A DNA stretch of 41,557 bases, from the IMG/VR virus record IMGVR_UViG_3300045988_063404; one strand, written 5' to 3'. Of this stretch, positions 13,542 to 41,557 are shown in pieces (within the stretch, counting starts at the first letter, position 1; every line of letters begins with the position of its first letter). Position numbers and translations under genes: made by a program. Source of the DNA: a virus. The notes below the pieces were generated by a model. It worked only from the letters and a program-made list of their open reading frames with translations. It was not told the origin of the DNA and did no database searches.

Positions 13542-14216
13542 AACAATATGGGCGTCTATAAATCCATTGAAAACGGTGAAACTCTTACTATGTAAGACAA
13601 TACCGTGCGAAGCCATCCAACTTAAAGGAGGTGATATTGTGAAGAGATGTATAATATGTGGAAAACTTTTGCCTTTAGAAGCATTTCATAAAAGTGCTAG
13701 TAATAAAGATGGGCATGATAATAGATGCAAACATTGCAAAAGTATTATGGCACATAACAAAAGAGAGTCTGATTATTTCAGGCAATACTGCATAACGAAG
13801 AAGAGTGAGTGTAAACACAAAAACATTCCTTTTGATTTAGACCCAGAGTATTTAGAAGAAATATGGACAGGAGAATGCCCAATCTTCCATGTACCTTTAA
13901 GCAAAAACCATAAAGGTAGAGGGTCTACGTATTCAGCGCATTTAGATAGATTTTACCCTAATAAGGGGTACGTCAAAGGAAATGTAGCATGGATAAGTGG
14001 TAGAGCAAACCGAATCAAATATGATGCAAGTATCAAAGAATTGAAACAGATTGTAAGTTGGATGGAACGTGTAACGACTATTCCGAAAGGAAGTACACCT
14101 AAGCAGGTGGAAGCGGTGGATACAGAGGATTCTGTAAAGAGATAGTCTGTTCTATATGGTGACATATAGCGGTCGAAAGACGCTTTGTAACTAGCGACTA
14201 CAGGGGAACACAAAAC
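13542..14216 (+). mobile_element. Putative group I intron (about 675 nt) carrying an HNH homing endonuclease, inserted in polymerase motif B
   Basis: The boundaries come from restoring KTF|IYAFLYGAGDEK (T7: KTFIYGFLYGAGDEK). Exon GACGTTT (13535-13541) can pair with GGGCGTC (13550-13556), giving U-G pairs at the splice site (P1). A GNRA-capped 7-bp hairpin lies at 14152-14169. The last intron nucleotide is C, not the canonical G. Confidence 0.6.
13639..14145 (+). CDS. HNH homing endonuclease (intron-encoded)
   Basis: GTG 13639 lies 7 nt after AAGGAGG. The protein has an N-terminal Cys cluster CIICG...CKHCK and an HNH core AHLDRFYPNKGYVKGNVAWISGRANRIK. Confidence 0.85.
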   Translation: MKRCIICGKLLPLEAFHKSASNKDGHDNRCKHCKSIMAHNKRESDYFRQYCITKKSECKHKNIPFDLDPEYLEEIWTGECPIFHVPLSKNHKGRGSTYSAHLDRFYPNKGYVKGNVAWISGRANRIKYDASIKELKQIVSWMERVTTIPKGSTPKQVEAVDTEDSVKR

Positions 14217-16236: not shown

Positions 16237-16260
16237 TAATTGAGACACTCATTAGAGGAG
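16237..16260 (+). promoter_or_regulatory. Phage RNAP promoter, TAATTGAGACACTCATTAGAGGAG (predicted +1 G at 16255)
   Basis: Same core and spacing as 3837, 4280 and 37838. Its position is analogous to T7 phi6.5. Confidence 0.7.
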
Positions 16261-16269
16261 GTATACATT

Positions 16270-16458
16270 TTGGATAACATTAAGATTCCTTATGTACATG
16301 AAAATATTGTGAAGTATCTTGATAACTTGTATAACTTTGATTCTCTGTTGTATACCCTTAAAGATGAACCAGCTGAATACAAGATTGGCTACATTAAGGG
16401 AGCTAGGGATATTATCAATCATTTACGGTCAATTGCTGAAGAGCAGAATGAGAGGTGA
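16270..16458 (+). CDS. Hypothetical protein (62 aa)
   Basis: TTG 16270 lies 8-9 nt after GAGGAGG. The TTG 16240 start in the ORF track lies inside the promoter, upstream of the predicted +1. Confidence 0.5.
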   Translation: MDNIKIPYVHENIVKYLDNLYNFDSLLYTLKDEPAEYKIGYIKGARDIINHLRSIAEEQNER

Positions 16459-26818: not shown

Positions 26819-29800
26819 ATGACAGATGTTGACGCTTTTCTAGCTGCTGTGTCTGGAACAGAGTCTAATGGTAACTATGAGGCATACAATGCAAAGACAG
26901 GAGCTAGAGGTAAATATCAGTTTATTCCTAGCACTTATGCTATGTATGCTGATGACCCAAATGACTGGTCTCCAGAGATGCAGGAACTTGCAGCACATAA
27001 AATGGCAGCTGAGTATATTCAGAACTATGGATATAGAAATGCTGCTATTGCGTGGCAAGGTGGTGAAGGAGCTATCGGGCATGAAGACTGGTCTGATGGA
27101 AACATGACCACAGGTGAGTATGCAGACACAGTTATGGCAAATATGCAATCCTATATGAATGGAGACTTTATTGATAAAGCCGTAACGCCTTCTGGTGCTT
27201 ATGGTTCTAAGCATCCATTTGTAATGCCAAATGACACACAACAACAGAAGGTCTATGGCTTCTGGGATGAGTTTTATAATAAGTTCATGAACCAGTTTGT
27301 AGACCAGGGGGCTGTGTCAGCAGTAAGAACGGGTTGGGCTAACTTTGTCAATAGGGACTCTATGGCTGAGTTAGGAATGAGTGACTATAGACCCTCTCAG
27401 GAAGATATTGCACTTGTCCAGAAGGGTCTTGAAGGTGACTCTATTGCTCAGAACTATGTCTTGAGTAATGCTCATAATCAAAAGACTCTTTTGGAACTCT
27501 TAGCGATGAAACAGGAAGACCGTGCAAGAGCCCAAGCAGTAGACAACATGGATTATGGCTTGTCTTCAGTAGGTTCTGTTCTGGGGTCTATTCTTGACCC
27601 TACGATTCTCTTGGCATTTGTACCGGGTGCTAATCTGGGTACAATTGCTGGACTTGCTTCTAAAGTTGCTAAAGTAAGATCTTTAGTATCTCTTGGTGGC
27701 AAGGTCATTAATGAGAGCAGAGCAGCTAAGATTGCAGCTAATGCTCTTACTTCTATGGCTTACGCAGGGGCAGACAGATTTGCAGCTCAGAGATGGGGTG
27801 GATTTAATCCAGACTATGCAACTGCTATGACATTCAGTGGCCTATTAGGGGCTCTTGGGGGTGCTATTGCTAAGTCCGGTAGTGGTGAAATGACTAGAGC
27901 TTTGGATCTGACAAAACGTGGTCTAGAAGAAGAAACGGTTCGTGTTGCTATTGGTGCTACTCCTAGAATGGATGCAAAACTTCATGTACAGGATGCTCTA
28001 ACCAAAGATATGATGGATGACTTTGCTCAGGAAGGATCTGACATTGATCTTCACTATGCTGAACGTGCTGAACGTGCTAAGAAAGCAGCAGCAGAGAAGG
28101 CAGAGCTTGAAAGAGAACCAGAGGTGGCTCAGGAAGGCACTGCACTTGAAGGGAATGTACAGTTTCGAGAAGATGCAGTAACACCAGAAGAAATCAAAGG
28201 TGATAAAGATGTCAGCAGAGAAGTAACAGAGAACAAGAGTCCTGGTTATGAACCAATGGCACCTAAAACGGTGGATACAGCTAGATCTGCTAGCACAGAC
28301 ACAGCAGCTACAAAGTCTTCTGAAGCTGTACAGGCTCTCCAGGATGCTACAACAAAGGCATATCACGACCTTGTAGAACCTAACTCTATTACTGATACTC
28401 TTATCAAAAATGGTCAGATGTTTATCCTTACAGAAAACAAAGCTCGCAAATGGGCAGCTCATTATGGTATTACATTAGACCCCGATGCAAAGGCATTTAG
28501 CTTACCGGGTCTTGGTGTCTCTGTTTTAATTCGTGAAAAGATCAATAAGAGAAACCTTACAGGGGTCGTAATGCATGAAGCTGGTGTTCATATTGCACTA
28601 AAAAATATGCTAGAACCAAAGATCTATAATAATGTTATTAATATGGTTAAGACTCGTATGATGCACTCTAAGGATAAAGATTGGATTAATGCTACTAGAA
28701 ATGCTACAAGTCCAGAAGAAGCTCTTGCTTACTGGATTGAAAACATGGGTAATAAGCATAAATCTGATAACATTGTTAAAGAAGTCCGTAAAGGTATTGA
28801 GCATTGGCTAGACCCTAACTATGATGCGGATCAGTGGATTGCAGACACCGTAGCTGGGGCATTAAAACAGTATGCATCTAAGAACAAAGATGTGACTAAT
28901 GTTGTCAATATGATTCTTGACCCTATGATGTCTAAGAAGAGTAAGTTATGGGCAGCTGCTAGAAAGGCTACTAGGTCTACTAATCCAGAAGTTGTCTTTA
29001 AGTATTGGATTAATAATAATCCAGATAAGAGATCTACCCTCTATAAGGAGATCAAAAAACAGGCTATTGTTCAATATGGCAGAAGTGATCTGACGGATAA
29101 AGAGATCAAAGACTTTGCATTAAAGACCTACTTTAATCCAGACCTATATGGCAGTGACAAGATTATTGATGTTGACAATGTTCATCCAGAAGATGTTGAG
29201 TCTAATGTTGTGAAAGCTGATAAGACACCAATCTATCCAGACACAGCTAATCCGGCTAGAGAAAGATTTGACAATGCTCAGGGGAATCTTGAAAAACTTA
29301 TGGTTCGAAATGCTCATGAGACTCTTCATAAGGATGACCCAGTGCAGACTCTTCCAGATGGCTCTCATGTCATTGAAGGTATCACCTACTCTAAGAATAA
29401 CTCCAATGGTGAGGGGTTAGCTCAGGCTATAGATGATATTGGGGGTATTGACTACTCTAAGACTACTACAGAGAAGACTATTTTTGATGAAGTGTCTGAT
29501 AAAGGACAAAGTTCTAAATATCGCCAAAGTTCCTTTGGTATCTTTAGTGGCTTAGGTCTTCATACGGAACATAGTTTCATCGGCAATTTATATGGTATTA
29601 TGAGAAACTCTCATTCTCGTCTTATGCAAATGGCATCTAATATAATTTTTAGTGACCCTCGAATGGAAGCTAACTATACTAATTTCTTACCAGCAGCGAG
29701 CATAAAACAGATGATGCTTGATCGTTGGAACTCCCAGTATATTTCTTTTCTTGATAAGAGACAGCAGTATATCAGAGATACTTTTGGTGTCTTTAATGGT

Positions 29801-32191
29801 CTTCAGAGAAATCACCTCATTCATAAGGTGAACGAACAGATCATTGACTGCTACAATGCAAAAGCTAGAGGAGACATATTGAAGCTCAAAGAGTTCTCTC
29901 CAGAAATTCAGGGTCTTGCTAAGGATATGGAAGATCTTACAGCTGACATTATGCACCAGATGCAGAAGAGATCAGAAAACCTGGGGGGTAGAAGGGGTCT
30001 AGGGTCTTTACTTGCCCAGACAGATATAACCAACTCTGCTAAGGAGTTCTTCCGTATCACTGACGAAGAGAAACTGTATGAATGGATGGGTCGTAACTAT
30101 AATGATCTTAATGATGTCTTAGAAGATTTGACCGAATACGCTAGACGCTTTATGGACAGAGATGCTGAAACTAAATACTTTATTGAGCTAAAGAAACGTG
30201 AGTTTGAAGCTAAGAAAAAGACCTACAAAGGAAAGACTCCCTTACAGTGGTTTGACCCTACTGAAGAAGAGATTGAAGAACATCTTGAACAGGCAGCTAA
30301 GAACTGGGCATATGGTCGTGTGGATAAAAACAATTCTCGTCTGAACTTTGATCTGAAAGACACAAAGCTAGCTAATCCATATACAGCTTTTTCAGACTCT
30401 TTGAAGCATCGCTTACCTATTGATACTTCCGGAATCATGAAGATGAAGAATGGGACAGAATTTAGCTTTGATAAGAATATTAGAAGTTATGATCTTGATA
30501 ACTTCTTGCCACAGATTATGAATAGACTCAGTGGTGAAATTGCTCTTAGAGCTACCATTGGGGACTCTAAGACACAGCAAGATTTCTATAGCAAGATTAT
30601 TCAGGAGCTTGCTAAGAACAGTCCTATTAGAAATGGTAGTAGAGAACTTGAAGCATTGCAAATGGGGCTTCATAAGATTCTTGGTATTGGGTCTTACAAT
30701 ACTAATGAACAGAAACTTGGTGATGCTGTGTCTAATTCACTCAGAAGTCTTTCCTATGCTAACGTAGGGGGTAACATGACCTATGCGCAGCTTGGAGAAC
30801 TTGGGGGCTCTATTGCTTATGGTGGTTGGAAAGTATTAGCTAACAATATTCCAATCTTTGGAGACTTAGCTAAGAACATTCGCCTTGGTAAGGATGGAGC
30901 TGAGATTATTGAGAACGTCACCAGAAAGATCTATGCTGAAGATATTGCAACTAGAGGGTGGCGCACATCTTCTTCCACAGACTCTAAAGTGTACAGACAG
31001 CTCTTTGATAAGGTGTCTGCTGAGAATCCAAAACCAGCTCTTAATGGTAGAGCATTTGACGCTGTCAATAGAAATATTAAGAGAGCTGCTCTCATTACAT
31101 CTTCTGTTAACTTCATGCCTAAACTGACTAATGCAATGGTTCAGTCAATGCGCCAGGCAGCTATTGAAGACAGCTTAAAGTGGGCTATGGGTAATAGAGT
31201 AAAAAGTATTATTCGAAATCCATTCTCTAAGCAGAAGTTAGCAGCTGCTAGTATTCACACTCAGAAGGATGTTGATAATGTCCAGAAGGCTATCAAAAAG
31301 TATCTTATTGATGAAAAAGGAAATATTGACCATTGGCTTGATGAAGACCCCATGTCGTTTGCTAAATGGAAGAAACTTATGGATAATGAGTCCATGAGAG
31401 GTATTCAGCAGAACAGTATTGGTAATATGACGCCATTTAAGGAAAAGCATAGACTATTCTTCCAGTTTAAAGACTTCACTATGAAGGCTATGAACCAGCA
31501 GTTTATGAGAGCTTTATCGTCTCGTGAAAGAGATGATGCTTTTGCTGCTCTGTATTCCTATGCTACCAACTCACTATCTTATTATGCAATGACAGTAGCT
31601 AAAGCCTATGCGTTTTATCCAAATGATGAACAAAAGCGTAATGAATACTTAGAGAGAAATGCTAATATTAAAAAAGTAGCTCTTTCTGGTATTTTCAGAA
31701 TGTCTATGGTTGCTCCGGCAAGCTTTGTGTCTGATGGGTGGGAAGTTGCTACAGGTGAGCCTATGTTCAGAACTACAGTTGATAATACTCGAAACACTAG
31801 AGCTGCTGATGACTCTTGGGGTAAGAGAGCAGCTGACATTGCTAATCAGACTCCAGTATTTGGTATGCTTGGTAAGGTATATGAAGCATATCAGGGAAGC
31901 AAACATCTTATGTCTGGTGATGGTATTTCCAGGGATATTGATAAGGTGATTGCTGCCTTTCCTCTAGGGTCTTATCTGGCTATGTCCTACTTCGGGTCTA
32001 TGCTTAAAGAATCTGCTAATCTTCCAGAGAAGAGATCTTTCTATACTCAAGTACAAAATAAAGGCAGAAGTAAGACACAGAAGCCACAGAAACTTGTGTC
32101 TGTTGAACCAACCAATAAGACTGCTAGACTTCTGACTTCTCAGCAGAAAGCAACAAATAAGGTACAGTCTTTGATTGACAGTTCTAAATAA
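26819..32191 (+). CDS. Internal virion protein D with an N-terminal lytic transglycosylase domain (T7 gp16-like), 1790 aa
   Basis: The N-terminal SLT motif AVSGTESNGNYEAYN...GARGKYQFIPSTY. Syntenic with gp16 but roughly 470 aa longer. Confidence 0.85.
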   Translation: MTDVDAFLAAVSGTESNGNYEAYNAKTGARGKYQFIPSTYAMYADDPNDWSPEMQELAAHKMAAEYIQNYGYRNAAIAWQGGEGAIGHEDWSDGNMTTGEYADTVMANMQSYMNGDFIDKAVTPSGAYGSKHPFVMPNDTQQQKVYGFWDEFYNKFMNQFVDQGAVSAVRTGWANFVNRDSMAELGMSDYRPSQEDIALVQKGLEGDSIAQNYVLSNAHNQKTLLELLAMKQEDRARAQAVDNMDYGLSSVGSVLGSILDPTILLAFVPGANLGTIAGLASKVAKVRSLVSLGGKVINESRAAKIAANALTSMAYAGADRFAAQRWGGFNPDYATAMTFSGLLGALGGAIAKSGSGEMTRALDLTKRGLEEETVRVAIGATPRMDAKLHVQDALTKDMMDDFAQEGSDIDLHYAERAERAKKAAAEKAELEREPEVAQEGTALEGNVQFREDAVTPEEIKGDKDVSREVTENKSPGYEPMAPKTVDTARSASTDTAATKSSEAVQALQDATTKAYHDLVEPNSITDTLIKNGQMFILTENKARKWAAHYGITLDPDAKAFSLPGLGVSVLIREKINKRNLTGVVMHEAGVHIALKNMLEPKIYNNVINMVKTRMMHSKDKDWINATRNATSPEEALAYWIENMGNKHKSDNIVKEVRKGIEHWLDPNYDADQWIADTVAGALKQYASKNKDVTNVVNMILDPMMSKKSKLWAAARKATRSTNPEVVFKYWINNNPDKRSTLYKEIKKQAIVQYGRSDLTDKEIKDFALKTYFNPDLYGSDKIIDVDNVHPEDVESNVVKADKTPIYPDTANPARERFDNAQGNLEKLMVRNAHETLHKDDPVQTLPDGSHVIEGITYSKNNSNGEGLAQAIDDIGGIDYSKTTTEKTIFDEVSDKGQSSKYRQSSFGIFSGLGLHTEHSFIGNLYGIMRNSHSRLMQMASNIIFSDPRMEANYTNFLPAASIKQMMLDRWNSQYISFLDKRQQYIRDTFGVFNGLQRNHLIHKVNEQIIDCYNAKARGDILKLKEFSPEIQGLAKDMEDLTADIMHQMQKRSENLGGRRGLGSLLAQTDITNSAKEFFRITDEEKLYEWMGRNYNDLNDVLEDLTEYARRFMDRDAETKYFIELKKREFEAKKKTYKGKTPLQWFDPTEEEIEEHLEQAAKNWAYGRVDKNNSRLNFDLKDTKLANPYTAFSDSLKHRLPIDTSGIMKMKNGTEFSFDKNIRSYDLDNFLPQIMNRLSGEIALRATIGDSKTQQDFYSKIIQELAKNSPIRNGSRELEALQMGLHKILGIGSYNTNEQKLGDAVSNSLRSLSYANVGGNMTYAQLGELGGSIAYGGWKVLANNIPIFGDLAKNIRLGKDGAEIIENVTRKIYAEDIATRGWRTSSSTDSKVYRQLFDKVSAENPKPALNGRAFDAVNRNIKRAALITSSVNFMPKLTNAMVQSMRQAAIEDSLKWAMGNRVKSIIRNPFSKQKLAAASIHTQKDVDNVQKAIKKYLIDEKGNIDHWLDEDPMSFAKWKKLMDNESMRGIQQNSIGNMTPFKEKHRLFFQFKDFTMKAMNQQFMRALSSRERDDAFAALYSYATNSLSYYAMTVAKAYAFYPNDEQKRNEYLERNANIKKVALSGIFRMSMVAPASFVSDGWEVATGEPMFRTTVDNTRNTRAADDSWGKRAADIANQTPVFGMLGKVYEAYQGSKHLMSGDGISRDIDKVIAAFPLGSYLAMSYFGSMLKESANLPEKRSFYTQVQNKGRSKTQKPQKLVSVEPTNKTARLLTSQQKATNKVQSLIDSSK

Positions 32192-32214: not shown

Positions 32215-32463
32215 ATGGATGCTTTTGATGAGTATTTTCCTTATATATTGCTAATGTTATGCGTAGGGGCTGCTATTCATATTCCAGCATGTCTGGTAAT
32301 ACTGATAGCTCTTTTACTTTTCTTATGGTTCGTTGTTTTTCCCATCTTTATTTTAATTGGTATCAATGCCCTCTTTGGTGGAGAAGTATGCTTCATTGTC
32401 ATACTTCTTACCATTGTCATTGGTATCTACAATTTATTTCAGACAGGAGATGACCTAAAATAA
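32215..32463 (+). CDS. Small hydrophobic membrane protein (82 aa, about 3 predicted transmembrane segments)
   Basis: GGGAGG Shine-Dalgarno sequence 7 nt upstream. The sequence is almost entirely hydrophobic (ILLMLCVGAAIHIPACLVILIALLLFLWFVVFPIFILIGI... VCFIVILLTIVIGIY). Confidence 0.6.
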   Translation: MDAFDEYFPYILLMLCVGAAIHIPACLVILIALLLFLWFVVFPIFILIGINALFGGEVCFIVILLTIVIGIYNLFQTGDDLK

Positions 32464-33764
32464 ATAATGAAAGAAAAGCTCAGATTTTTTATCAGGGTAA
32501 TGGTACTCAAACACAGTATTCATTTCCTTTTGATTACCTTAGAAAGGCGTTCGTGCATGTTTCTCTTATCTCTAGTGAATCCATTAATGAACTCACACAG
32601 GGTACAGAGTATACAATAACAGATAGAGTAGTTACTTTATCTGCTCCTACAACCCTTAAAATTAAGATCTATAGACAGACAACAACAACTCCTCTTGTGG
32701 GGTGGGCAGATGCTTCTGTTCTTAGAGCAGCTGATATGAATGTTCAATCTACTCAGCTTTTGCACCTTGCAGAAGAAACGGCAGACAAAGTATTTGATAC
32801 TGGTATGTCTACTGCCCCAACTAACACTACTGTGTGGGACGGACAGTATAAGAGAATCACTAACCTTCTTGACCCACAGGAAGATGGGGATGCAGTTACT
32901 TTAAGATACATTCAAGATAAGCAGAGTAGCCTTATTAATGCCTTAAAGAACGAAGGAGCTAACCAGAACGCTAGTATTGTGTCTACTGGAAATACACAGA
33001 ATACCCGACTGAATACTACAGGAGACACCCAGAATAAAAGGCTTACAGATACAGGAGATGCACAGAATAGTAGGCTGATAAGTACTGGTGATACGCAGAA
33101 CAGCCGGCTTACAACTACTGGGGATAGTTATGTAGATACTATGACTTCCTTAAAGGATGATGCAGCTACACAGGCAAGTACTGCTACTACAAAAGCCACA
33201 GAAGCTAAGAATAGTGCTACCAGTGCCTCCTCTTCTGCTTCTACTTCTACTACAAAAGCTACAGAAGCTAGTAACAGTGCAGAATTAGCTAAGAAGTGGG
33301 CTATGTCTGATTCTAGTCCAGACGATGTGTCTGGCAATAAGTCTTCTAAGACGTGGGCGACAGAAGCTAAGAATAGCGCTTCTAGTGCTTCTTCTTCTGC
33401 TTCTACTGCTACTACTAAGGCTACAGAAGCTAAGAATAGTGCTACCAGTGCTTCTTCTTCTGCTTCTACTGCTACTACTAAGGCTACAGAAGCTAGTGAC
33501 AGTGCTAGTGCGGCGGCAAAGAGTGCACAGGACGCCGCAAAATTTGACCCTTCTACGTATTACACTAAAACAGAAAGTGATACTAAGTATGCAGTTAAAA
33601 ACGATACATACACTAAAACAGAAAGTGATACTAAGTATGCAGTTAAAAACGATACATACACTAAAACAGAGACAGAGGATAAAATAAAGACTTTAGCACC
33701 TACTCCTTTTAATGCTGATAAACACTTAGTGTTCCCTTCTGGTGCAGAAATGTGGGTGGAATAA
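32460..33764 (+). CDS. Tail fibre protein (T7 gp17-like N-terminal domain) with a non-canonical start
   Basis: NNERKAQIFYQGNGTQTQYSFPFDYLRKAFVHVSL aligns with T7 gp17 ANVIKTVLTYQLDGSNRDFNIPFEYLARKFVVVTL. The frame is closed by TGA at 32451, so the only start-like codons before the conserved region are ATA 32460 (9 nt after AGGAGA) and ATT 32484. GTG 32553 would delete the conserved N-terminus. Confidence 0.8.
   Translation: MNNERKAQIFYQGNGTQTQYSFPFDYLRKAFVHVSLISSESINELTQGTEYTITDRVVTLSAPTTLKIKIYRQTTTTPLVGWADASVLRAADMNVQSTQLLHLAEETADKVFDTGMSTAPTNTTVWDGQYKRITNLLDPQEDGDAVTLRYIQDKQSSLINALKNEGANQNASIVSTGNTQNTRLNTTGDTQNKRLTDTGDAQNSRLISTGDTQNSRLTTTGDSYVDTMTSLKDDAATQASTATTKATEAKNSATSASSSASTSTTKATEASNSAELAKKWAMSDSSPDDVSGNKSSKTWATEAKNSASSASSSASTATTKATEAKNSATSASSSASTATTKATEASDSASAAAKSAQDAAKFDPSTYYTKTESDTKYAVKNDTYTKTESDTKYAVKNDTYTKTETEDKIKTLAPTPFNADKHLVFPSGAEMWVE
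32985..33672 (+). repeat. In-frame tandem repeats inside the tail fibre gene (33-nt, 63-nt and 48-nt units)
   Basis: There are four 33-nt units (TGDTQNxRLxT) from 32985. The 63-nt units (TEAKNSA(S/T)SASSSASTATTKA) start at 33198, 33261, 33360, 33423 and 33486. The 48-nt units (YTKTESDTKYAVKNDT) start at 33561, 33609 and 33657. Confidence 0.9.
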
Positions 33765-33767
33765 AGT

Positions 33768-34529
33768 ATGCAGGAAGTAGCACATAAAATACACATAAAG
33801 AAAAATGGGGCACAATATGATGTGAATTTATATGACAATAAGTTTCCTTCCCCAGACACATTCTTTCCTGTAAAGGTAGGTGGGACTACTTACTATCTCC
33901 CTGCTACCGCTTATTTAAGTGGAGATGCCGCAGGTGGAAGTACTCCTTTACGAATTAAGAAGAGTGGAACAACTTATCAGATTATAAAGAAAGCAGAATG
34001 TAACATTAACATTCCTACTTATGATAAGCAACAGATTGTAGTAGATGTTACTAATAGTATCACTGGGAATAAAGCTACATATACAAATAATGTAATAGTT
34101 CCTTTTGGTTCCTATTTTTCTGCAAAAGTTCAGAGTACAAATAGTCAGTATAATGCAGGAAGCATGACTTCTGTTTCTAGTGGAACAATAACAGAGAAAA
34201 ATATTAACCTTACTGCTTCTCCTGCTACTATAGCTATTCCTACAGGTTCTCTATACATATCAGGGGATACTACGTTTACTGTACCCGCTGGTATTACCGT
34301 AATCAAAGTTGGTGATTATTCCCGAGCTAAGTATGTTAGGGTACTTCCTAACTCAACACATTACCTTAACTGGTCATATAGTGCAACAGAATCTGGTGGT
34401 GACTATTCTTTGTACTGTGACACACATGATTCTAAGAACTGGCTAGGCCTTGCATGGGATAATGTAAAGGTAACACTCTATTGGTCTCCTGAAATAAATA
34501 ATCATTCCACGAATTTTAATTGTTATTAA
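33768..34529 (+). CDS. Tail fibre-associated / candidate receptor-binding protein (253 aa)
   Basis: Called by position directly after a short gp17-like fibre that lacks the T7 C-terminal tip domain. Beta-rich, Ser/Thr/Asn-rich composition. No motif recognised. Confidence 0.4.
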   Translation: MQEVAHKIHIKKNGAQYDVNLYDNKFPSPDTFFPVKVGGTTYYLPATAYLSGDAAGGSTPLRIKKSGTTYQIIKKAECNINIPTYDKQQIVVDVTNSITGNKATYTNNVIVPFGSYFSAKVQSTNSQYNAGSMTSVSSGTITEKNINLTASPATIAIPTGSLYISGDTTFTVPAGITVIKVGDYSRAKYVRVLPNSTHYLNWSYSATESGGDYSLYCDTHDSKNWLGLAWDNVKVTLYWSPEINNHSTNFNCY

Positions 34530-34837: not shown

Positions 34838-35131
34838 ATGCGATGGATACTATGGTACATATTGATTATCATAGTATCCACGCTTTTTTATTTGGTTGGT
34901 TGGTGCATGGAGTGGTGGTTGACAGGAAAGCCAGACTTACAGGAACTTAGAGCCTTCCTTCATGAAATTGTGTCTTCTCCATGGATAGCTATGTTGGGAT
35001 TCATAGGGCAGCTGTTCGTTGATAAGAACAACAATAAAATACCAGACATATTGGAGAAAGACACCCATCCCCCTACACCTAGACCACCAACTATAGAAAG
35101 GAGAAACAATAACAATAATGACACCAGATGA
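34838..35131 (+). CDS. Holin candidate (97 aa, two transmembrane segments)
   Basis: MRWILWYILIIIVSTLFYLVGW and SSPWIAMLGFIGQLFV are hydrophobic spans and the C-terminus is charged. It lies immediately upstream of the endolysin and overlaps it. Confidence 0.55.
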   Translation: MRWILWYILIIIVSTLFYLVGWCMEWWLTGKPDLQELRAFLHEIVSSPWIAMLGFIGQLFVDKNNNKIPDILEKDTHPPTPRPPTIERRNNNNNDTR

Positions 35132-35591
35132 TTTCATATCTATGATTGGAGACACAGCAGGTAAGGTATGTGCTGAATATAACCTTCCTGCTTCTGTCTG
35201 TATTGCTCAAGCTATTCTTGAGAGTGGTTGGGGTAAGTATTGCATTGGGCAGTACAACTACTTTGGACGCAAATGGAATGGTTGGGGTAACTATGAAAAG
35301 CAGCAGACCACAGAATATGAGAATGGTGAATATGTCACTATCTATGACAAATTTCAGTCTTATAGTTCCCTTGAAGAGGCTATTAGAGATTGGTGCATCC
35401 TCATTACTGAGGACTATAAATATTCTGATGTAATTGTATCATGGCATGAAAACTGGTCTGTAAAGGACTTCGTGTACACTCTTGCTCCTATTTATGCAAC
35501 AGACCCAGATTATGCTTACAAGATTATGGCTACTATTAACGCTAACAATCTTACTAGATTTGATGGATGGGGAGATGAAACTGATGCCTAA
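35118..35591 (+). CDS. Endolysin, N-acetylglucosaminidase family (FlgJ/LytD-type glucosaminidase domain)
   Basis: CIAQAILESGWGKY...YNYFG...YSSLEEAIRDW is the characteristic glucosaminidase-domain signature. Confidence 0.8.
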   Translation: MTPDDFISMIGDTAGKVCAEYNLPASVCIAQAILESGWGKYCIGQYNYFGRKWNGWGNYEKQQTTEYENGEYVTIYDKFQSYSSLEEAIRDWCILITEDYKYSDVIVSWHENWSVKDFVYTLAPIYATDPDYAYKIMATINANNLTRFDGWGDETDA

Positions 35592-35844
35592 GATTAACAG
35601 TAATATTATTGACCAGATTGCACAGCTAGAGGTAGATGCTCTTCTGGATGGTCTTAGTGACCCAGAACTAAGACGTAACCCGGCATTTCTTGATAAAGTA
35701 CGAAGGTTTCTAAAAGAGAACCAACTTCAGACCACTCCTGAGACACCTGGTGTTGCTGAGCTTCTAAAAAAGCAGCAAACAACTAATATTCCAATCTTTA
35801 AGGAGGAGGTAGGTAGCTTTGATGTGGACAGAAGAGCAAATTGA
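35584..35844 (+). CDS. Terminase small subunit (T7 gp18-like)
   Basis: 86 aa. LLDGLSDPELRRNPAFLDKVRRFL resembles T7 gp18 MLADLSDHERRSPQLYNAINKLL. It lies directly before the large terminase. Confidence 0.7.
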   Translation: MPKINSNIIDQIAQLEVDALLDGLSDPELRRNPAFLDKVRRFLKENQLQTTPETPGVAELLKKQQTTNIPIFKEEVGSFDVDRRAN

Positions 35845-39562: not shown

Positions 39563-39795
39563 CCAGGGAATATGCTAAATATTACATAAAGTAATACATT
39601 TGATAGTTAAGATTACATAAAGTCATACATAGTAGCGTACCTGGTGCGCATATCAGTGTAAATCCTACATAATCAATTCAATTTAATTTAAGAAAAAAAG
39701 ATTGACATAGAAAAAATGTAGTGATATAATGCACTTAACAAGCAATGTAGCTTGTGTTTATTATCATTATTTATTATGTAAAGGAGACTTACATT
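39563..39795 (+). repeat. Early promoter-leader cassette, copy A (paralogous to 40243-40456)
   Basis: Blocks shared with copy B: CCAGGGA..., ATATTACATAAAGTAATACAT, AAAGTCATACATAGTAGCGTACCTGGT, AAAAAAAGATTGAC, TATAATGCACTTAACAAGCAATGTAGCTTG, TATTATCATTATTTATTAT and GTAAAGGAGACTTACATTATG. Confidence 0.85.
39702..39730 (+). promoter_or_regulatory. Consensus sigma70 promoter, TTGACA-17 nt-TATAAT with TGn extended -10 and an upstream A-tract
   Basis: TTGACA at 39702-39707, TG at 39722-39723 and TATAAT at 39725-39730. Confidence 0.75.
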
Positions 39796-40176
39796 ATGAG
39801 AAAACAGTACACACTTGAGAGGTTATTAGACGACGCATTAGATACGTCTTCTACACAGTATCATGAGATTTTGAATGTATTCGACGGCGTAAAAGAAGAC
39901 CCACGTGCGGAACTAATTTGGTATTATGTAATACGTAAATATTTGGAAGACTACAATTATGCCGTTTCATTGGATATGGGCATGATTCCAGCGGATTTAA
40001 GCACACGCACAGCAAAGGAGACTATAAAGAATAAGGCATTAGCTATTATTAAGTCTTCTATTTGTACGACGAAAAATCACATTGAATACTATCGTTTCAG
40101 TGATTGCTCATATAACGATGATGAGTTAACTGACATACTTAATATTGAAAAAATTATTATTAAGATTTTTTGCTAA
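39796..40176 (+). CDS. Hypothetical early-type protein (126 aa)
   Basis: ATG 39796 lies 8 nt after AAAGGAG. It is bracketed by a consensus host promoter and an intrinsic terminator. No motif recognised. Confidence 0.65.
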   Translation: MRKQYTLERLLDDALDTSSTQYHEILNVFDGVKEDPRAELIWYYVIRKYLEDYNYAVSLDMGMIPADLSTRTAKETIKNKALAIIKSSICTTKNHIEYYRFSDCSYNDDELTDILNIEKIIIKIFC

Positions 40177-40242: not shown

Positions 40243-40456
40243 CCAGGGAGAATAGCTAATATTACATAAAGTAATACATGAGAACAGTTAAGAGTACAAA
40301 AAGTCATACATAGTAGCGTACCTGGTAGCAACAAATAAAAAGAAAAAAAAAGATTGACTTATAAAAAATAAGATGTTATAATGCACTTAACAAGCAATGT
40401 AGCTTGGGTCTATTATCATTATTTATTATATATTTATTGTAAAGGAGACTTACATT
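40243..40456 (+). repeat. Early promoter-leader cassette, copy B (paralogous to 39563-39795)
   Basis: See copy A: the same ordered blocks, including an identical 30-nt stretch from the -10 element into the leader. Confidence 0.85.
40354..40382 (+). promoter_or_regulatory. Sigma70 promoter, TTGACT-17 nt-TATAAT with TGn extended -10 and an upstream A-tract
   Basis: TTGACT at 40354-40359, TG at 40374-40375 and TATAAT at 40377-40382. Confidence 0.75.
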
Positions 40457-40957
40457 ATGTTAACTAACAACAGTAATACCATTGGTACAGATTTTAAGGC
40501 TTTTAAGTTATCCGGGCATTTTTCGGCACATGCACAGGTGATGAAAAGAGAATGGAAGAGTGAGAATAAGACGGATAGGTATTGCGCATATTTTCTCAAG
40601 TCTTACAATACTATCGTAGCACGTATTACATTCAAAAATTGTTACTTCGGAAGTGCAAGCGTGTACGGCTTATATTCTACTAGCACACGTAAGCATATCA
40701 ATTGGTTTTTTACTCATTTTGATTTGAATATCCCGTTTGATGTTATAAAAGTTGCAGCTGGAAATGAGCATTCAAATATTATAAGCAAGGACGGCGCAAT
40801 ATTGCAAGTTGTAACAGATGATGATGAGGTTTTGTGGAATGAGATTTGGACGAAAAAAGCTAAAAATCAAGCGGTAAAAAAAGCGGTTGAAAACATGAAA
40901 ACAAATTGGACATGGAATTGTTTTGATTGGTCTGATTACCTGGGTAGAGAGTACTAA
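40457..40957 (+). CDS. Hypothetical early-type protein (166 aa)
   Basis: ATG lies 8 nt after AAAGGAG. It is bracketed by a host promoter and a terminator. It contains SYNTIVARI...YSTSTRKHINWF, which I cannot confidently assign to a family. Confidence 0.65.
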   Translation: MLTNNSNTIGTDFKAFKLSGHFSAHAQVMKREWKSENKTDRYCAYFLKSYNTIVARITFKNCYFGSASVYGLYSTSTRKHINWFFTHFDLNIPFDVIKVAAGNEHSNIISKDGAILQVVTDDDEVLWNEIWTKKAKNQAVKKAVENMKTNWTWNCFDWSDYLGREY

Positions 40958-41402: not shown

Positions 41403-41557
41403 ATTCAAGTTATAATACTCAAGTTGCAATATTCAAGTTATAATATTCAAGTTGCAATATTCAAGTTATAATACTCAAGTTGCAATATTCAAGTTACAAG
41501 ACTCAAGTTACAAGACTCAAGTTACAAGACTCAAGTTACAAGACTCAAGTTACAAGA
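41403..41557. repeat. 14-bp tandem repeat, 11 units (ATTCAAGTTATAAT / ACTCAAGTTGCAAT grading into ACTCAAGTTACAAG)
   Basis: Direct reading. The last four units are identical to the units at 1-55. Confidence 0.9.

Follow-up and report, generated by a model that had tools for sequence, protein, structure and literature searches.

A conserved ATA codon as the probable start of the tail fibre gene in a T7-like phage of the human gut

The fibre gene and its upstream region

The stretch of DNA analysed here (the window; 41,557 nucleotides (nt), IMG/VR virus record IMGVR_UViG_3300045988_063404) represents the complete genome of a T7-like phage (41.6 kb, 38% GC), with every gene on the + strand. Its tail fibre gene follows a 1790-residue open reading frame (ORF) for a gp16-like internal virion protein (26819-32191) and is followed in turn by the genes for endolysin and terminase. 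The fibre frame spans 32454-33764 and is closed upstream by an in-frame stop. Comparison with related phages indicates that translation of the fibre very probably starts at an ATA codon at 32460, placed behind an extended Shine-Dalgarno (SD) sequence. The features of the region are collected in Table 1.

Table 1. Features in and around the start of the fibre gene, in coordinates of the window.
Feature	Position	Strand	Remarks
Upstream ORF, 82 amino acids, predicted membrane protein	32215..32463	+	No Pfam match; called as a gene in the public annotation
Shine-Dalgarno sequence AGGAGATGA	32445..32453	+	Core AGGAG; UGA extension able to pair with the 3' tail of 16S rRNA
ATG ACC TAA in the third frame	32450..32458	+	ATG flush with GGAG (spacing 0); missed in the first-pass annotation
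In-frame TGA closing the fibre frame upstream	32451..32453	+	TGA is a normal stop in the window genome (7 of 41 ORF ends)
Proposed fibre coding sequence	32460..33764	+	434 codons plus stop
Proposed initiation codon ATA	32460..32462	+	Clades A and C have ATA, other relatives TTG or ATG at the homologous position; residue 1 of gp17 and PF03906
Out-of-frame ATG and its 50-residue ORF	32467..32619	+	Lineage-specific, unconserved; AACG in place of AATG in relatives
T7 gp17-type N-terminal tail-attachment domain, residues 6-152	32475..32915	+	PF03906; T7 gp17 PDB chains; AlphaFold2 and Foldseek
In-frame near-cognate ATT	32484..32486	+	Rejected as a start: -4.9 kcal/mol, ATC in most relatives
T6 run	32485..32490	+	Lineage-specific; synonymous codon choices (ATT TTT)
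GTG, residue 32, first canonical in-frame codon	32553..32555	+	Start chosen by automatic gene callers

A first-pass annotation of the window had held that the fibre frame contains no ATG, GTG or TTG ahead of the GTG at 32553. This proved to be correct: the frame-0 codons from 32454 to 32552 include none of the three, and the only in-frame near-cognate codons ahead of that GTG are ATA 32460 and ATT 32484. The coordinates given at that time for AGGAGA (32445-32450), for the TGA and for the ATA, 9 nt past AGGAGA, were likewise right, as were those of the ATG at 32467, which lies in another frame (+1) and 16 nt past AGGAGA. Not spotted then was an overlap between ATA 32460 and the TAA stop (32461-32463) of the 82-residue upstream ORF, the two together reading ATAA. 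This ORF is present in some relatives and elsewhere a terminator-like hairpin occupies the slot. A fusion of the fibre with the upstream ORF was considered and rejected, since the ORF is missing in many relatives.

The protein read from ATA 32460 begins with a domain of the T7 gp17 type. The Pfam profile PF03906 (Phage_T7_tail) is matched (83.1 bits; curated cut-off 25.2; E = 2.3e-23), with residues 6-152 aligned to profile positions 6-149 of 157, and a phmmer search finds the T7 gp17 chains 8e4g, 8dsp and 7boz (E = 3e-15) with residue 5 of the query opposite residue 5 of gp17. Since these alignments are in register, ATA 32460 corresponds exactly to Met1 of T7 gp17, and the register proposed in the first-pass annotation is upheld. 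The similarity across the first 10 residues is weak, and most BLAST alignments begin at Y11. In T7 itself the start codon of gene 17 is ATG. An AlphaFold2 model made with 26 homologues gives a β-sandwich with a predicted local distance difference test score of ~90-95, confident only for residues 6-75, in which strand β1 comprises residues 4-12. A Foldseek search with this model returned the proximal fibres of T7 and related phages with a probability of 1.00 (8dsp, 7ey9, 7boz). Within residues 1-31 the invariant positions are Y11, F22-P23-F24-D25-Y26-L27, K29 and F31. A start at GTG 32553 would remove β1, β2 and the invariant stretch from F22 to L27, in agreement with the earlier claim that such a start would lose conserved attachment residues. 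The fibres of T7 are trimers held at six sites between the gp11 and gp12 fibre docks (PMC6702177).

The start codon in related phages

Further evidence for a start at ATA 32460 came from a comparison of ~70 related loci drawn from IMG/VR and from metagenome scans. In the window's own clade (clade A, N-terminus ISNERKAQIFYQG; ~25 loci with 13 distinct upstream contexts) the codon at the homologous position is ATA in all, and GGAGATG is conserved upstream of it. Clade C (N-terminus IAKERKASVIYTS; 6 loci) also has ATA, with GTG-TGA directly upstream in frame. The codon is TTG in clade B (N-terminus LAKERKASVIYEG; ~35 loci), where TAA or TAG stands upstream in frame and AAAGGAG lies 7 nt before the start, and also in the single locus L038 (N-terminus LADTRKANVSYQG), which has an in-frame TAA directly upstream and a weaker SD of the AAGGA type. 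Clade D (N-terminus MSDNGRKASVVYEG; ~10 loci at 46-49% identity) has ATG with AAAGGAG 10 nt before it. A motif of the AGGAG type is conserved in every related clade. Judged from these alignments, the start position is homologous throughout the group and is occupied by a canonical codon in some clades and by ATA in others. ATA combined with an in-frame stop and no canonical alternative was seen in at least 15 independent assemblies, some of high coverage (~417x for L050), and the loci with no canonical in-frame start ahead of the conserved coding sequence include L001, L002, L006, L007, L025, L043, L045, L049, L050 and L053, among others.

The sequence that follows the ATA codon evolves as coding sequence of the fibre frame. 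Residues E4, R5, K6 and A7 are invariant among the relatives. When codons 2-11 of 25 distinct sequences were compared, synonymous differences made up 38% of the total in frame 0, compared with 5% and 14% in the two alternative frames. Each alternative frame is interrupted by a stop within 96 nt, frame +1 in 22 of the 25 sequences and the remaining one in all 25. The invariant ERKA and the synonymous pattern of frame 0 together indicate that translation in this frame is under way by codon 4. The same pattern, with strong purifying selection, extends over residues 1-31 as a whole.

The initiation context was examined in the window and in its relatives. The duplex between the SD preceding ATA 32460 and a generic anti-SD was calculated at -11.6 kcal/mol, with extended pairing that leaves a spacer of 5 nt, and the median for 35 gene starts of the genome is -11.1 kcal/mol. 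The pairing takes the form GGAG-A-UGA, which differs from the ideal GGAGGUGA by an internal mismatch. The suggestion that an exceptionally strong SD offsets the ATA codon is only partly true, in that the pairing is extended and its strength equals the genome median. The ribosome binding site is unstructured, folding of 32420-32500 giving z = 0.58 and just a weak hairpin of 4+3 base pairs. Nearly all genes of the window carry an SD of the AAGGAG type. The core AGGAG occurs 66 times on the + strand, so that one would lie 5-13 nt ahead of an arbitrary point by chance in ~1-2% of cases. All of the 14 distinct ATA contexts combine extended SD pairing with spacers of 3-6 nt, and the mean SD ΔG follows a modest trend, from -10.9 for ATA contexts through -9.7 for TTG to -8.4 for ATG.

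Elsewhere in the genome the few starts other than ATG follow some of the strongest SDs. These are GTG 13639, which stands after AAAGGAGGTGAT (-19.3 kcal/mol; window 13626-13641), TTG 35819 of the terminase large subunit (-15.1 kcal/mol; 35801-35821) and TTG 16270 (-13.5 kcal/mol; 16256-16272). This hints at a general link between a weak start codon and a strong SD in this phage. At the endolysin start (35098-35120) the motif AAAGGAG is followed 5 nt on by an in-frame ATA at 35109, and the annotated ATG at 35118 lies 14 nt from the SD. The ATA at 35109 may be a second, competing ATA start, or else the endolysin may simply have a long spacer.

The choice of ATA 32460 with its SD as the best start candidate, made in the first-pass annotation, is thus backed by the conservation of ATA, by the presence of TTG or ATG at the same position in sister clades and by the coding signature that sets in right after it. 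On this comparative evidence it is very likely that translation of the fibre starts at ATA 32460. Such a start is a case of the known SD-directed initiation at near-cognate codons and involves no new mechanism.

Alternative starts and points of doubt

An alternative start might be sought in the ATG at 32450, which is flush with GGAG, followed by a +1 shift like that of prfB at ACC-TAA to give a protein beginning MTKINNERK. The order of SD, 3 nt, slip codon and stop does resemble the geometry of prfB, the product would parallel the MDKISNERK of relatives in which this ATG is in frame, and L043 and L052 also carry ATG AAC TAA A. In clade A as a whole the spacer between the flush ATG and the ATA is either 6 or 7 nt. 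With a spacer of 6 nt (GATAAA or AATAAA) the ATG shares the fibre frame, and automatic gene calls begin MDKISNERK or MNKISNERK, as in 66 of the top 120 database clusters. Where it is 7 nt the ATG is out of frame (ACCTAAA in the window, and ACAGAAA, AATAAAA, AACTAAA, TATAAAA and GATAAAA in others). A tree built from the N-terminal domain places the window, L001 and L025 at the base of clade A, all three with 7 nt, and shows the two spacer states interleaved, with at least three flips. Because these flips occur among close relatives, the frame of the flush ATG is not conserved. The slip codon and stop were found only in the window, L043 and L052. They are absent from L001, L002, L025, L045, L049, L050, L053 and clade C, and the spacers ACAGAAA, AATAAAA, TATAAAA and GATAAAA offer no stop or consistent slip site. 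Clade C has ATA yet no ATG at all, and clade B has TTG precisely at the position of the ATA. The ATG at 32450 also has zero spacing from GGAG, whereas none of the surveyed gene starts of the window genome lies less than 4 nt from its SD core. A frameshifted start at ATG 32450 is accordingly improbable, and the triplet fits better as part of the extended SD (GGAG-A-UGA). The 6-nt and 7-nt spacer states might themselves constitute a heritable dosage switch.

It is more improbable still that the gene starts at GTG 32553 and encodes a fibre without the first 31 residues. As the first canonical in-frame codon this GTG is used in public gene calls, and both the call P0001 and the database entry of the window begin at it, with MHVSLIS. 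It lacks an adequate SD, having only an AAGG core (-8.3 kcal/mol), and the residues that it would discard are those under strong purifying selection, which hold the invariant motif together with β1 and β2 of the β-sandwich that matches gp17.

Equally slight is the probability of some other non-canonical event, whether initiation at ATT 32484, read-through or recoding of the TGA at 32451, or a gene decaying into a pseudogene. ATT is a known near-cognate start codon and had been named as an alternative in the first-pass annotation, but ATT 32484 lacks an SD (-4.9 kcal/mol) and most relatives have ATC there, for which reasons it was abandoned as a candidate. Recoding occurs in some gut phages. 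In the window genome the 41 ORF ends comprise 29 TAA, 7 TGA and 5 TAG, and as each of these codons serves as a stop, the fibre frame is not reopened by recoding. The upstream in-frame stop of relatives is moreover TAA or TAG, and the frame-0 sequence upstream of the fibre start is an overlap with another gene. A pseudogene is at odds with purifying selection over many abundant genomes, at coverage of up to ~417x.

There is next to no probability that the fibre starts at ATG 32467 and reaches its frame by a -1 slip on the T6 run, or that the true sequence is T7 with one T lost in assembly. A seventh T would indeed give MKEKLRFFYQGNG in the fibre frame, and to that extent the arithmetic of the first-pass annotation stands, but both the slip and the sequencing error that it had allowed for are refuted by the following. 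The ATG occurs in the window's lineage only, all other relatives having AAC-G (AAT and AAC being synonymous for Asn in the fibre frame), and the T6 run is also unique to that lineage, relatives having ATCTTTTAT or ATTTTCTAT (ATC TTT or ATT TTC, synonymous for Ile and Phe). Three further assemblies, which derive from two or more samples (ERZ501193, ERZ28579165, ERZ916231/ERR321377), carry the T6 junction without a single difference. Purifying selection acts in frame 0 on codons 2-8, which precede the run and include the invariant ERKA. The ATG lies 16 nt from the SD, and folding of 32420-32500 showed no significant downstream structure of the stimulatory kind expected of a programmed -1 frameshift.

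Several points weigh against initiation at ATA 32460. Its SD is of only median strength for the window genome, and the trend in SD strength between start codons is drawn from phylogenetically related contexts that are not independent of one another. In those 66 clusters of the top 120 that have an in-frame ATG three codons upstream of the ATA, that ATG may have a role. In reporters in Escherichia coli, finally, AUA supports only ~1-2% of the expression from AUG, with a range of 0.02-3% (bioRxiv 10.1101/063800).

Proposed initiation, genome setting and known near-cognate starts

If the fibre is initiated at ATA 32460, the AGGAG core of the SD, extended by UGA (32445-32453), would position the 30S subunit and a spacer of 5-6 nt would set the ATA in the P site. 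The initiator formylmethionyl-tRNA (fMet-tRNA) would then pair with the A and U of the codon, the mismatch at the third position being tolerated. The product would start (f)Met-NNERKAQIFYQGNGTQTQYSFPFDYLR, that is (f)Met-Asn-Asn-Glu-Arg-Lys-Ala-Gln-Ile-Phe-Tyr-Gln, in the register of T7 gp17. In the window, ribosomes that end the 82-residue ORF at the overlapping TAA (ATAA) may feed the ATA start by coupled re-initiation. The content of the interval from gene 16 to the fibre gene varies (window 32215-32463; L001 2942-2979; L008, L025, L043, L045 and L049 upstream of the fibre SD). Some relatives have a strong hairpin (-14 to -21 kcal/mol) with a run of T, terminator-like, immediately before the fibre SD, and in others the gp16 stop lies 15-29 nt ahead of the fibre start. 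As many relatives are of one or other of these kinds, coupling is not the general mechanism.

The weak ATA codon probably sets a low output of fibre, the virion needing just 18 fibre copies, and it is plausible that the codon lowers fibre synthesis on purpose. A bolder proposal is that the series of ATG, TTG and ATA, with ATA appearing twice on the tree, reflects selection for a gate that couples completion of the virion to the translational state of the host (IF3, guanosine tetraphosphate (ppGpp), nutrients). This we regard as unlikely. If true, it would represent a physiological control of virion maturation in phages of gut Negativicutes. The sister clades with ATG, TTG and ATA provide a natural series in which start-codon strength can be set against the stoichiometry of a virion component.

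Standard gene callers mis-annotate this fibre gene systematically. Among the public gene calls (P0001-P0120), ~22 of the 120 top clusters are truncated in that they begin only within the N-terminal tail-attachment domain, and at least 6 run on upstream through an overlapping frame, so that more than 25 of the 120 are either truncated or over-extended. In one public call the start is an ATG that precedes the SD, which is itself translated as a result (MKGVIEISKERKAS). Mis-annotation of this kind affects catalogues of receptor-binding proteins, host prediction and phage engineering.

Further observations concern the fibre gene and its neighbour. The shaft of the fibre contains two sets of tandem repeats, one at 33356-33495 (2.2 copies of 63 base pairs (bp), 94%) and one at 33561-33670 (2.3 copies of 48 bp, 100%). 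In a near-identical phage from a different sample (L085) the fibre has 366 residues against 403 when both are counted from the GTG, and the difference in length falls in the repeat region. A 253-residue ORF at 33768-34529, which begins 3 nt past the fibre stop and has no Pfam match, may encode, as a separate protein, a distal part of the fibre or a receptor-binding component.

A DNA search for near-identical phages in GenBank was without a match, and the capsid protein of the window is ~50% identical to those of known Autographiviridae. The contig comes from a human-gut study (PRJEB4336), and at least one related contig is also labelled human gut. Positions 1-43 and 41515-41557 are identical. 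A second assembly of the same phage has 41,514 bp, 43 nt less than the window, and the overlap of the ends is probably an artefact of circularisation in the assembly and not a true terminal repeat. Two leaders of ~75 nt (39700-39796 and 40361-40457) are nearly identical, with an identical core of 30 nt (39725-39754 and 40377-40406). A perfect sigma-70 promoter (TTGACA-17-TATAAT at ~39702) stands in the first leader, and both share a small hairpin and an identical ribosome binding site. These paired leaders are likely to be early promoters for the host RNA polymerase, which would make the window a circular permutation with respect to the physical genome ends. The identical leaders had suggested that the genes at 39796 and 40457 might be paralogues, but their proteins are unrelated and this was ruled out.

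The probable host was approached through the endolysin (35118-35591, PF01832), whose matches among GenBank phages are phages of Firmicutes only. A homologue 82% identical to it lies in a 2.5-Mb contig of Dialister sp. i34-0019-2H8 (NZ_BAABYQ010000001.1, ~1.977-1.981 Mb), in a block syntenic with the lysis and small-terminase region of the window that includes holin-like, endolysin and gp18-like genes. This suggests that the block is a T7-like element, either integrated or surviving as a remnant. Dialister, a diderm Firmicute, is a member of the Negativicutes (Bacillota). From this shared gene content the host of the phage is probably Dialister, and the AAGGAG-type SDs on nearly all of the phage genes fit an SD-dependent host. 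What weighs against the assignment is that it stands on one endolysin-containing syntenic block. Dialister is thereby indicated as the probable host of an uncultured group of T7-like phages, and with a host in the Bacillota the precedents for AUA starts in that phylum become the relevant comparison.

Natural conserved AUA starts are rare and until recently were known mainly from a handful of cellular genes. If the reading of ATA 32460 is true, the fibre gene adds an AUA start in an essential phage structural gene, conserved over a widespread clade of T7-like phages in the human gut. No relevant work on non-canonical starts of phage fibre genes emerged from a literature search, and one on Autographiviridae of Dialister turned up virome surveys only. 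The fibre resembles T7 gp17 (PF03906; PDB 7boz, 7ey9, 8e4g, 8dsp) in the exact residue register of its N-terminal domain and in the placement of its gene after that of the gp16-like internal virion protein. It differs from T7 gp17 in being only ~33-40% identical, in its distal part and in the separate 253-residue ORF that follows.

Two further precedents come from E. coli and from phage genes. As with the AUU start of E. coli infC and with reporter constructs (bioRxiv 10.1101/063800; PMC5499595), a codon that is near-cognate at the third position would be decoded by the initiator tRNA with an efficiency that depends on context, IF3 and physiology. Given an optimised initiation region, an AUA mRNA nearly equals an AUG mRNA in translation in extracts from rich medium, but it falls behind under nutrient limitation or ppGpp (PMC5499595). 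The AUU of infC serves the autoregulation of IF3, whereas no feedback loop is evident for the fibre gene and the host is not E. coli. A change of AUG to AUA in T4 rIIB, as cited in PMC5499595, led to a reduction of ~85% (~15% left at 25 °C) and was temperature-sensitive, and an AUA construct of the HB-3 hydrolase, cited in the same work, retained 7.5%. The fibre gene would be comparable to rIIB as a phage gene translated from AUA at a reduced level, although the rIIB and HB-3 codons are laboratory mutations and the ATA of the window is the conserved wild-type state of a clade.

The closest comparison is with the natural conserved AUA starts of Staphylococcus aureus infC, ccpN and citZ (ccpN also in Bacillus subtilis), which work at ~10-30% of AUG (PMC13009471; bioRxiv 10.1101/2025.06.19.660503) and all have extended, start-proximal SD pairing (PMC13009471). 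As in these genes, a conserved AUA heads a conserved coding region in the window and is preceded by an extended SD at a short spacer, and the host-state gate considered above would have a parallel in ccpN of S. aureus, whose AUA start depends on the medium. The S. aureus and B. subtilis starts belong to cellular regulatory or metabolic genes and have been proven by Ribo-Ret and reporters, whereas the start in the window belongs to an essential phage structural gene and is proposed on comparative evidence. The SD of the fibre also departs from the S. aureus type in its internal mismatch (GGAG-A-UGA) and its median strength.

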